DNA from: a virus
Taxonomy: Duplodnaviria > Heunggongvirae > Uroviricota > Caudoviricetes
Length of the DNA stretch: 64,000 nucleotides
IMG/VR virus record: IMGVR_UViG_2721755660_000001
Direction: 5' to 3' (one strand)
This document shows, one piece after another, positions 12,001 to 15,000 of this stretch. Made by a program: the position numbers. Numbering within the stretch: position 1 is the stretch's first letter; each line of letters begins with the position of its first letter.

Positions 12001-15000
12001 GCGATGATAAACCTACCGATGTTTGTCATGTGCAGGTTGTCCCTGTAAAGCTCCCCGGCCCCTGAGAAACCATCAATTTTCCCCGCCTTCGCTAGTCTGT
12101 CAAACCTCTCAAGCAAATCACCCTCAGAGATTAGGCCTGAAACATTAACTCCATCTTTGGCAAGTTGCATCTGAAGATACTCCTGAAATACCTTCCCGTT
12201 ATTTACCAGCTTTCCGTTCTCCTCAACGCTTCCATTCCATATAGTCGTGTAGTCCATAGCATCCAGATCACTGGAGTCATTTCTCGACCAGGTGTAGTAG
12301 ATGTAGATTGCTGCATCTTTGCTTTTGCTATTTCGAATCTCTTTGATGAGGGATTCAACAGCACTCACTTCATCAGTAACTTCCCCGTGCATAAAAGGCT
12401 GTATGGTAATGGCATCAAATGCAACATTGTTAATTGCATCCCTATATCTCATTTTCTTAGGGTCTACGCATGTGACCTCTGGGCTTGAAATAATGTTTTC
12501 AATATTGTGATTGCAGTAAATATGCCATTCATTATCTATTGTAACGCCATTGAACTTTGCCAGCTTCACAAGATCATTTGATGGCTTTAAATCCCATGTA
12601 TGGCTATTCCCAATACTCAGCAATTTAAATGGTTTCACGGTTAAATTAATAGTGAGGGTATTTTTACTTTTATCTGTTAAGACAATGGTGGACTTTCCTG
12701 GGTTTTTGGCTGTTATCTTCCCATTATTAATGGAGGCCACATTAGTGTCAGAAATTGTGTAATCCGCAACTCTGAATTCAACACTGCGCTCATTGCCAGA
12801 GCTAATAACGATGTTTTTGTTAATGTGCGTGGGGTTGTCGCACGCAGTTATGAATAGCGCGGAAAATGAAGCCATTACCAATGTCCTGAAATTATACATT
12901 TTTGAACTTGCCAACTTTAAACTCACCTTTAAATAATCTAACAACATGGTTAACCACCATTTTGTCAATAACGATTGCCGCAAATAAAGATATTGCAAAT
13001 ATTATGATTACATAGAGCATGGTTTTGATTGCCAGGTAATCAACCACGGCAGGAATGCCAAGGTAGTAAGAAACCTTTTCTCGCACAGCGATGTGTATTA
13101 AGTAGACTCCGTATGTAAAAGGAGCAAGGAAAAGAATAATCTTCGAAGCAGGCTTGTCATTATCGAAATGAGTGCCGGTGACTATTAAAGTCAACATACT
13201 AGAGAAGAAGAACATGCTGACGCTAAAATCATAGGGCTTGGTATCAAACCCAAGGCTGTTGACGCTTAGCCATGTGAATGTGACTTGCATTGCAAGCGAG
13301 GCCGCAAACAACTTCCACGTGGTTGATCTCTTGATTTTAACGCGCTGAAGAAGCCCTCCCGCGATGAAGTAGCCTAGCCAAAGATAAATCTGAGGTATTG
13401 GGATAATGTTATGATACCCCGTTATTACTTTCCCCAGTTGATGCTCATACTGAGGCCAACAACAAATGACAGCTATAAATATTAAGCTATGGGCAGTTTT
13501 ATCCAATGGAATTGCATCAGTTATTACTTTAATGGCAGGGTAAACAATGTAAATGCCAAGCAGAGAATAAACAAACCATAAGTGAACAGATATGCCTGTT
13601 GGTGATTTGTATAGCAACTCGAAAAATCCACCTATTCCTTTATTGTAGAACGCATCATTATGCTGGAAATAATAGTTTATGAAAGCGTAAATGAAGAATG
13701 GAACAAGCAATGTTGCAAGTCTTTTTCTATAACCAGACCAAAGATTTTCCGTTTTACGGTTAAGCAGGAAATATCCGCTCATTATAAAGAATATAGGAAG
13801 TCCGGCTCTGACGATCGCTTGAGTAAACATCGATTGATAGACAATTAGATCAGACTGTCCGGTTTTAACCATCGTCGCATAGTCCGGGGTAACATGAATT
13901 GCTATCACTAACAGGCAGCAAATTATCCGTAAAAAATCTGCAGATACATTTCTCATGGGGATTCCATAAAATTTTTTCCTACATGATAGAGCAACCAACC
14001 CCGGTTGTGAATGGCATGAGAAATTCCATAAGCATCAGTCATAAGCATTGAGGCAGTGATCACTACTTGATCAGCAATGCCGCAATGAACTACTGTATGC
14101 ATATACAGTAATCACGGAGTGCATATCATGGGCTTTCCATCACCGGCGGCAGACTTCACAGAAAGGCGCATATCGCTCGATGCGATGCTCGTAAGCCATC
14201 CATCAGCTACGTACTACATGCGCGCAGCAGACACTCACTATCGCGCTGGTATCATGTCTGGTGCGCTTCTTCTCATCGACTCGGTATTGAAGCCATGCGA
14301 TGGTTCGCTTCTTGTTTGTGCTACTGAGGGGGAATTCAGGATAAAGCGGTACCGGACTCATCCGCGACCACACCTGGAGAATCTTGCTGATGGGAGATGG
14401 GAGGAGTTGCCGATAGACAGGGAGAACACGTCGGATGCGCTGGCGGTGTTTGGGGTGATCAAGTACATCATCAATGATGCGCGATCGGGGGAGTTTGACG
14501 ACTGCCCGGTGATGTAGCTGGAACTACTCCACCTTTTCATCAAGCCAGTCTGCCCACCACTGCATCATCTCACGACGGGTATCGAGATAGGCGGCATGGT
14601 TGTATACCGATCTGGTGCCGCCGCTAACGTGTGCCAGCTGCATTTCGATAGCATCACTGTTCCAGTGCTTCTCATTGAGCACGGTACTGAACTGATGTCG
14701 GAATCCGTGGCCGCTGGTCTGCCCTTCATAGCCAATGTTGCGGATCAGCCCAAGTACTGAGTTCTCGCTGATTGGCTTCTTTCTGTCATTTCGGCCGGGG
14801 AAACAAAGGTCGTACTGACCGGTGACATGCTTCAGAAACTTAAATAGCTCCTCAACCTGCCCGGACATCGGCACGACGTGCATCTTGCGGCCCTTCATCA
14901 CTGATGGATCAACGCTGATTAGCCTGTTTTCAAAGTCGATTCCTGACCATGCCAGCGAGCGGAGTTCGACTGTGCGCATGGCTGTATAGTGCAGCACCTG

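Follow-up and report, generated by a model that had tools for sequence, protein, structure and literature searches.

MucA, ImpA, SamA, and RumA are made at full length as proproteins requiring cleavage, and the polymerase subunit of each (MucB, ImpB, SamB, and RumB) is encoded with it. HumD of phage P1 was reportedly described by McLenigan et al. in 1999 (J Bacteriol 181:7005), and its family has been on record since that year. In the GenBank record of P1, the note on humD reads "functionally complements E. coli UmuD′". MucA, ImpA, SamA, and RumA have been placed among the UmuD-type accessory subunits carried on mobile elements under SOS control (PMC7092418, PMC8460599), and passages on P1 in the literature state that HumD can substitute for UmuD′ (PMC7092418) and that humD is under LexA regulation (PMC9603915).

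The window analyzed here, a stretch of 64,000 nucleotides of viral DNA, contains a gene that an earlier note, made from the sequence alone, had read as an SOS-controlled UmuD′-like gene without umuC. That reading is supported, and the observation behind it is confirmed; the gene is an ordinary member of the HumD family, a homologue of P1 humD, which is already annotated and not new. The features of the gene are as follows.

14116 to 14119, plus strand: Shine-Dalgarno sequence GGAG, 8 nt 5′ of the ATG, taken from the sequence
14128 to 14517, plus strand: humD-family coding sequence, 129 aa plus stop, with the ATG at 14128 and a TAG stop at 14515–14517
14233 to 14235, plus strand: codon ACT for Thr36, which the alignments place over the UmuD nucleophile Ser60
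14344 to 14346, plus strand: codon AAG for Lys73, which the alignments place over the UmuD general base Lys97
14485 to 14514, plus strand: C-terminal tail SGEFDDCPVM, residues 120–129, lying past the end of UmuD and near-invariant among 120 family representatives

The 129-aa product begins with MGFPSPAADFTERRISLD... and ends with ...INDARSGEFDDCPVM. The start at 14128 is also the one that PGAP used in a genome with 100% DNA identity across 13900–14600, and GAGGTG-type ribosome sites occupy the place equivalent to the GGAG in P1, HK639, N15, and Pocitis76. An in-frame GTG at 14119 overlaps the ribosome-binding site and was not accepted as the humD start. This humD allele is rare, since an identical stretch of 701 bp is present in only five of 5426 complete E. 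coli genomes. Several of the five genomes with this gene came from cattle or beef.

The product matched the NCBIfam equivalog model NF051876 ("HumD family translesion DNA polymerase") from end to end (residues 1–129 on model positions 1–129) with 203.7 bits, well above the cutoff of 120, and the RefSeq protein from identical DNA in strain OkiPb01715 (WP_032141916.1) bears the same family name; in PHROGs the protein falls into phrog_811, "UmuD-like protein". The sequence characters that distinguish HumD could be found: the cleavage-site start MGFPSPA with no N-terminal arm, the tail ...NDARxGEFDDCPV[MI] past the UmuD end (present here as INDARSGEFDDCPVM), and a stand-alone gene without umuC downstream of a LexA box recognized by sequence. 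Full-length homologues were recovered by tblastn from the genomes of P1, P7, SJ46, and other P1-like phages (67% identity), phiKO2 (67%), HK639 (66%), D6 (64%), N15 (64%), Aeromonas phage pAEv1818 (47%), and Hafnia phage Pocitis76 (43%). P1 HumD had been put forward as a precedent, which holds as far as it goes, but the gene is itself a homologue from the same family, with 67% identity over 129 residues, the 203.7-bit match, and the same placement of the box. Among 120 family representatives obtained by clustering at 90%, on which all family statistics are based, 119 share the start MGFPSPA. A wider search of 1.84 billion representatives (50% clustering) yielded 2776 relatives at E ≤ 0.001, and about 30 proteins of at least 110 aa among the best 150 of these possess a cleavage-site start of the form M[GAS]FPSP..., so that pre-truncated UmuD′ proteins make up a sizeable and diverse class.

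Comparison with cellular UmuD locates the truncation precisely. In phmmer alignments against the PDB, Gly2 aligned with residue 1 of UmuD′ (1umu_A, E=4.7e-22) and with residue 25 (Gly25) of full-length UmuD (8gmt_B), other UmuD′ matches being 1i4v and 1ay9; the Cys24/Gly25 cleavage site is therefore the exact point at which the protein begins. This is where the earlier note had put the start, and the alignment with UmuD and P1 HumD that it had proposed as a check returned both this start and the 67% identity to P1 HumD. In the UmuD alignment, "AADTH" lies over "SGDSM", making Thr36 the counterpart of Ser60, and "FRIKRY" lies over "FTVKKL", making Lys73 the counterpart of Lys97, so that the Lys is kept. 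The peptidase S24 model PF00717 was matched by residues 1–77 (model positions 8–84 of 116) with 33.9 bits against a threshold of 23.3. The UmuD model NF007621/PRK10276 gave 81.9 bits, below its cutoff of 110, which leaves the protein outside UmuD proper, and of the arm, cleavage site, and Ser-Lys dyad that mark UmuD proper it has no arm and Thr36 in place of the Ser, with Lys73 kept. The LexA repressor model TIGR00498 was matched in its S24 part only, with 17.7 bits against 110.95, and the name "LexA family transcriptional regulator" on some homologue records is a misnomer.

The reading of the GDSM block as ADTH was correct with respect to the altered Ser motif, Thr36 standing at Ser60, but not as a peculiarity of this copy. 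Of the 120 representatives, 72 have Thr opposite Ser60, 46 have Ser, and two have Ala, and therefore Thr is the majority state and Ser, found in P1 HumD (ADSH), the minority one. The Lys97-equivalent position is Lys in 118 of the 120; it is Met in HK639 and Arg in Pocitis76 and pAEv1818, the last of which has in addition lost the nucleophile, with Ala in its place. Judged from these sequences, the Ser/Lys dyad is apparently dispensable in the more distant homologues.

Upstream of the coding sequence, two elements could be proposed for the control of the gene.

14067 to 14096, plus strand: candidate promoter read by eye, with −35-like TTGATC (14067–14072), an 18-nt spacer, and −10-like TACTGT (14091–14096)
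14091 to 14110, no strand assigned: predicted LexA (SOS) box TACTGTATGCATATACAGTA, matching the consensus TACTGTATATATATACAGTA at 18 of 20 positions and unique in the window

Both mismatches between TACTGTATGCATATACAGTA and TACTGTATATATATACAGTA are central, and the box is a perfect palindrome except for the central bases. It stands 17 nt before the humD ATG and is the sole site within three mismatches of the consensus in the 64-kb window, and no such site arose in 100 dinucleotide-preserving shuffles, which bears out the claim of a near-consensus LexA box upstream of the gene. The looser core CTGT-N8-ACAG alone occurred twice in the window versus 0.87 expected, which is not significant; only the full 20-mer reaches significance. 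Boxes lie 16–22 nt upstream of the ATG of the homologues in P1 (TACTGTATAAATGAACAGTA), HK639 (TACTGTATGTATAAACAGTG), N15 (TACTGTATAAAAAAACAGTT), Pocitis76 (CACTGTACGTATAGACAGTG), and pAEv1818 (TACTGAATGTGTATACAGTG, with one core mismatch), and phiKO2 carries the same 20-mer as found here, farther 5′ of the start and adjoining an annotated lexA binding site. In the P1 record, the LexA protein-binding feature ends 19 nt before the humD start codon, and when the upstream regions of P1 humD and this gene are compared, box aligns to box. A promoter consensus scan of the plus strand gave no convincing sigma-70 site 5′ of the humD ATG, its one nearby match having the −10 over the start codon, and for this reason the candidate promoter was read by eye. 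The sequence weakly suggests that 14067–14096 might act as the promoter, the left LexA half-site serving as its −10; at the corresponding position, N15 shows TTGCAT-17 nt-TACTGT.

The surroundings of the gene are those of a prophage.

2658 to 4988: tape-measure protein, a siphovirus tail gene, upstream
6291 to 8798: TipJ-type protein, a siphovirus tail gene, upstream
8828 to 10852: tail spike, a siphovirus tail gene, upstream
11002 to 13956, minus strand: three-gene block divergent from humD, two Acyl_transf_3 genes flanking an Ig-like-domain gene (Pfam, PGAP)
11002 to 11871, minus strand: Acyl_transf_3 gene (Pfam, PGAP)
12892 to 13956, minus strand: Acyl_transf_3 gene (Pfam, PGAP)
14524 to 15744, minus strand: tyrosine integrase with Pfam Arm-DNA-bind_3, Phage_int_M, and Phage_integrase (PGAP start 15693)
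15858 to 15932, minus strand: tRNA-Arg(CCT), the prophage attachment site (ARAGORN)

The carrier is a siphovirus-type prophage integrated at tRNA-Arg(CCT), and in strain OkiPb01715 the same tRNA-Arg(CCT) is followed by yfdC. About 6 kb of the upstream tail genes are 86% identical to those of Enterobacter phage CobraSix. The acyltransferase block probably serves surface-polysaccharide modification, and a promoter scan found a promoter-like site for it at 14011–13983 on the minus strand, about 80 bp from the LexA box; PADLOC gave no defence-system match. The integrase is convergent with humD, only 6 nt separating the two stop codons. The location between the integrase and the acyltransferase genes, as first described, was confirmed, and a similar setting recurs in HK639 and pAEv1818 (tail fibre, humD, convergent integrase) and in Pocitis76 (gtrB, gtrA, humD, convergent integrase); therefore the position beside the integrase appears to be the usual cargo slot for this gene.

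The claimed lack of a umuC partner was also upheld: none of the 26 scanned window ORFs of at least 250 aa contained a Y-family polymerase domain, no umuC was found among them, and the gene downstream is the convergent integrase. Since the window offers no umuC, the partner must be chromosomal UmuC. A host supply of this kind is common in the species: of the 5426 complete E. coli genomes, 5421 have umuD, and all five records listed annotate umuC beside it.

By analogy with P1, the gene probably encodes a LexA-repressed, SOS-induced, ready-made UmuD′ that would work with host UmuC without RecA-mediated cleavage. In an undamaged lysogen, host LexA would sit on 14091–14110, where the box probably covers the −10 region, and would keep the gene off. 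Upon DNA damage, activated RecA would promote the self-cleavage of LexA and humD would be transcribed, as the equivalent LexA site in P1 suggests. Met aminopeptidase removes Met before Gly. Translation from Met1-Gly2 followed by such removal would thus yield the exact UmuD′ N-terminus, and the product could then dimerize and bind host UmuC; the resulting pol V-like translesion polymerase would be active without the slow RecA-dependent processing of UmuD. The arming of UmuC is inferred here because of the 67% identity to P1 HumD and the equivalog-level HMM match. As the protein has no N-terminal arm, there would be nothing to self-cleave, whichever residue occupies the nucleophile position, and since the Ser/Lys dyad should not be needed for the role of UmuD′, its drift in the family (Ser has become Thr in this copy, and HK639, Pocitis76, and pAEv1818 no longer have the Lys) would be explained.

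For this locus itself, the assignment matters little beyond correct annotation. It indicates, though, that the strategy of P1, in which a LexA-controlled and processing-free UmuD′ borrows host UmuC, also rides integrated E. coli prophages. If the gene is active, error-prone translesion synthesis could set in at an earlier stage of the SOS response in lysogens, and this would bear on stress-induced mutagenesis in the five carrier genomes.

Three observations speak against this mechanism: a third of the residues are not those of P1 HumD, the scan gave no convincing sigma-70 promoter 5′ of the gene, and the strongly conserved tail, which has no UmuD′ counterpart, does not fit into the scheme. Counted with the VFGVI.YIINDAR that precedes it, the tail shows the strongest conservation in the family across the 120 representatives, and UmuD has no counterpart of it. 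Its motif [FW]DDxPx[MI] is kept in the proteins of Aeromonas phage pAEv1818 and Hafnia phage Pocitis76, both of which have lost the Ser/Lys dyad, and some distant pre-truncated representatives among the best 150 of the 2776 relatives end in ...EFDDTPF or ...FHDNLPF. The C-terminal tip of SSB reads DDDIPF (PMC5872125), and the resemblance of the tail to this tip, seen by eye, is a lead only.

From the sequence of the tail, one could propose that it is a short linear motif docking HumD to a partner other than UmuC, for example through a pocket that recognizes the SSB tip, and we regard this as unlikely; if true, phage HumD would have an activity, or a way of being recruited to stalled forks, that is not available to cellular UmuD′. 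The broader explanation built on it is that the protein is indeed SOS-induced but works mainly through the binding of its tail, which is acidic and hydrophobic and peculiar to the family, to another host or phage partner, the SSB-tip pocket being the candidate, or through modulation of the RecA filament, so that replication or repair would be tuned during prophage induction and complementation of UmuD′ would be secondary. The strong conservation of the stretch, its persistence where both dyad residues have gone in the Aeromonas and Hafnia phage homologues, its absence from UmuD, and the SSB-like ends of the distant representatives all point this way. However, the likeness to the SSB tip was judged by eye, with the Pro one position off and Met or Ile rather than Phe at the end of most proteins; moreover, the tail is absent from 24 of the 30 pre-truncated UmuD′-like representatives of 110–200 aa among the best 150 of the 2776 relatives, and P1 HumD is reported in its GenBank note to complement UmuD′. 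These points leave the explanation with a small share of the probability. An AlphaFold2 model from a shallow 41-sequence family alignment (64–89% identity to the query) reached a mean pLDDT of 42.5 and a pTM of 0.27 and was discarded. A metal (zinc) site formed by Cys57, Cys64, and Cys126 was considered as well and dropped, as the Hafnia phage protein has none of the three aligned Cys and the Aeromonas phage protein only an unaligned tail Cys.

It could also be asked whether the gene is functionless cargo, the decaying remnant of a umuDC-type operon that has lost its 5′ end and umuC. No umuC was found in the window, as such a remnant would predict, and unannotated C-terminal humD fragments (aa 73–128) exist in many Stx phages, in several cases close to where the record ends, which shows that decay of the gene has happened in some lineages. 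The copy studied here, however, is a full-length ORF with its own Shine-Dalgarno sequence and LexA box, its product matches the family HMM from end to end, and its start is identical in 119 of the 120 representatives. In pairwise comparisons with P1, HK639, N15, and phiKO2, pN was 0.22–0.26 versus a pS of 0.62–0.82; since dS is saturated in most pairs, exact dN/dS ratios are not meaningful and only the contrast between pN and pS was used. By this contrast, humD appears to be under purifying selection, and non-synonymous divergence far below saturated synonymous divergence argues against a decaying umuD fragment, which makes the remnant explanation very improbable.

Least credible of all is the idea, rejected here, that a Thr/Lys dyad is retained so that the protein could act as a protease in trans on targets such as LexA, host UmuD, or a phage repressor. 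In its favour, 118 of the 120 representatives have Ser or Thr, both hydroxyl residues, where the nucleophile would be, 118 have the Lys, and the neighbouring position 35 is highly variable. On the other side, Thr is a poor nucleophile substitute in S24 peptidases, the remainder of the GDSM motif is not conserved, HK639 has exchanged the Lys for Met and Pocitis76 and pAEv1818 have exchanged it for Arg, and pAEv1818 has Ala in place of the hydroxyl residue. The preferred reading thus remains that of a ready-made UmuD′ that would act with host UmuC.

Among the known systems, P1 HumD (YP_006569.1) is the one to which the protein can be compared in most respects: both have 129 aa and align end to end with 67% identity, so that one third of the residues differ, and both share the MGFPSPAAD start, the tail GEFDDCPV[MI], a LexA box 17–19 nt before the ATG, and the absence of an adjoining umuC. 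The two differ at the nucleophile position, with Ser (ADSH) in P1 and Thr (ADTH) here, in the match of the box to the consensus (17/20 in P1 and 18/20 here), and in their setting, P1 being a plasmid prophage with humD beside lxr and phd-doc, whereas the present gene belongs to an integrated prophage, in which acyltransferase genes and the integrase flank it. The genes of N15 (gp26), phiKO2 (gp23), HK639 (gp28), Pocitis76 (ORF26), and pAEv1818 (gp11) likewise show the pre-truncated start, an upstream LexA-type box, and the tail motif, and are placed after tail-fibre or O-antigen-modification genes, as here. They are 43–69% identical to this one; the prophages N15 and phiKO2 are linear plasmids in which partition genes follow the humD homologue, and the distant homologues have lost the Ser/Lys dyad, whereas this protein has Thr/Lys.

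E. coli UmuD and UmuD′, the accessory subunit of pol V, are likewise of the S24 fold family, with about 37% identity over residues 25–139, the Lys97 equivalent being kept and LexA regulation being shared, although only as a prediction here. The phage protein lacks the 24-residue N-terminal arm of UmuD and its Cys24-Gly25 cleavage site, has Thr in place of Ser60 and 10 extra C-terminal residues, and is not encoded in a umuC operon. MucA, ImpA, SamA, and RumA, compared by description, are also UmuD-type subunits on mobile elements, and the gene described here departs from them in being pre-truncated and in having no polymerase subunit of its own.

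In the 15858-16053 region of the window, the tRNA-Arg(CCT) gene is flanked by two prophages. The humD prophage, which carries the gene for a ready-made UmuD' of the HumD family, adjoins the 3' end of the tRNA, and a second, lambdoid prophage begins at its 5' end (15933). Precisely at this point the match to host DNA on the yfdC side of OkiPb01715, a strain with identical DNA across the humD region, breaks off. From 15858 onward the second prophage was matched by prophages of O111:H8 and O157:H7 strains, and none of the 5426 complete E. coli genomes in the collection carried the humD prophage and the second prophage side by side. 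The second prophage contained the following genes:

16053-17297, plus strand, integrase
27523-28476, minus strand, BsuBI/PstI-type restriction endonuclease
28473-29942, minus strand, Eco57I-type methylase, adjoining the BsuBI/PstI-type endonuclease gene
31963-34444 region, ResIII/DEAD helicase and primase
39239-40333, type I S-subunit-like gene
55208-57472, tail-fibre ORF

An S74 chaperone domain forms the C-terminal part of the tail-fibre ORF, which also includes three tandem units of 243 nt and long Gly-X-Y repeats of the collagen type. A 9-nt unit, GCTGCACTG, is present in about nine tandem copies (18274-18363) in the early region of this prophage.

The stretch 36618-37127 holds 73 copies of the heptanucleotide GACCAGC, which here encode (DQRPATS)n in frame with one long ORF:

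36609-39179, BcgI-alpha/HsdM-like methyltransferase ORF of 856 aa

Phage PhiR12_3, which is 99.9% identical, has the same methyltransferase gene directly downstream of antiterminator Q but with 83 GACCAGC copies instead of 73, a 70-nt difference that shifts the frame; the annotated methyltransferase CDS of PhiR12_3 begins 3' of the repeat. The enzyme-coding part 3' of the repeat (37130-39180) could be found in 29 of the 5426 E. coli genomes. The repeat-bearing gene appears to be a phase-variable restriction-modification gene that occupies the late-gene cargo slot.

At the other side of the tRNA, humD and the integrase gene of its own prophage converge, with only 6 nt between the humD stop codon (TAG, 14515-14517) and the integrase stop (14524-14526), whereas the corresponding gap exceeds 200 bp in the phages HK639, Pocitis76 (Hafnia) and pAEv1818 (Aeromonas). 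No terminator was detected between the two stops (14515-14526), and transcripts of humD made during SOS induction may continue into the integrase gene in antisense orientation.

Many Stx1- and Stx2-converting phages contain an unannotated fragment that matches only residues 73-128 of the HumD protein, at 48-50% identity. Several of these fragments are near the record end, and the fragments look like decayed humD remnants. Two examples from Stx-converting phage records are:

AP012540.1, 54767-54931, unannotated humD-like fragment
FM180578.1, 56979-57143, unannotated humD-like fragment

Many database records label HumD-family proteins as 'LexA family transcriptional regulator' or 'S24 family peptidase', and the proteins so labelled are without a DNA-binding domain; 'translesion DNA polymerase' in the family name also overstates the role of an accessory subunit. 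The 20-nt LexA box of the window, TACTGTATGCATATACAGTA, recurs exactly in Klebsiella phage phiKO2 (1437-1456 of its record), there between the humD homologue and a divergent dinI gene. The C-terminal tail SGEFDDCPVM (residues 120-129, 14485-14514) is near-invariant across the 120 family representatives, and its [FW]DDxPx[MI] form is kept in distant members without the catalytic dyad. UmuD has no counterpart of this tail, which bears a loose likeness to the C-terminal tip of SSB, DDDIPF.
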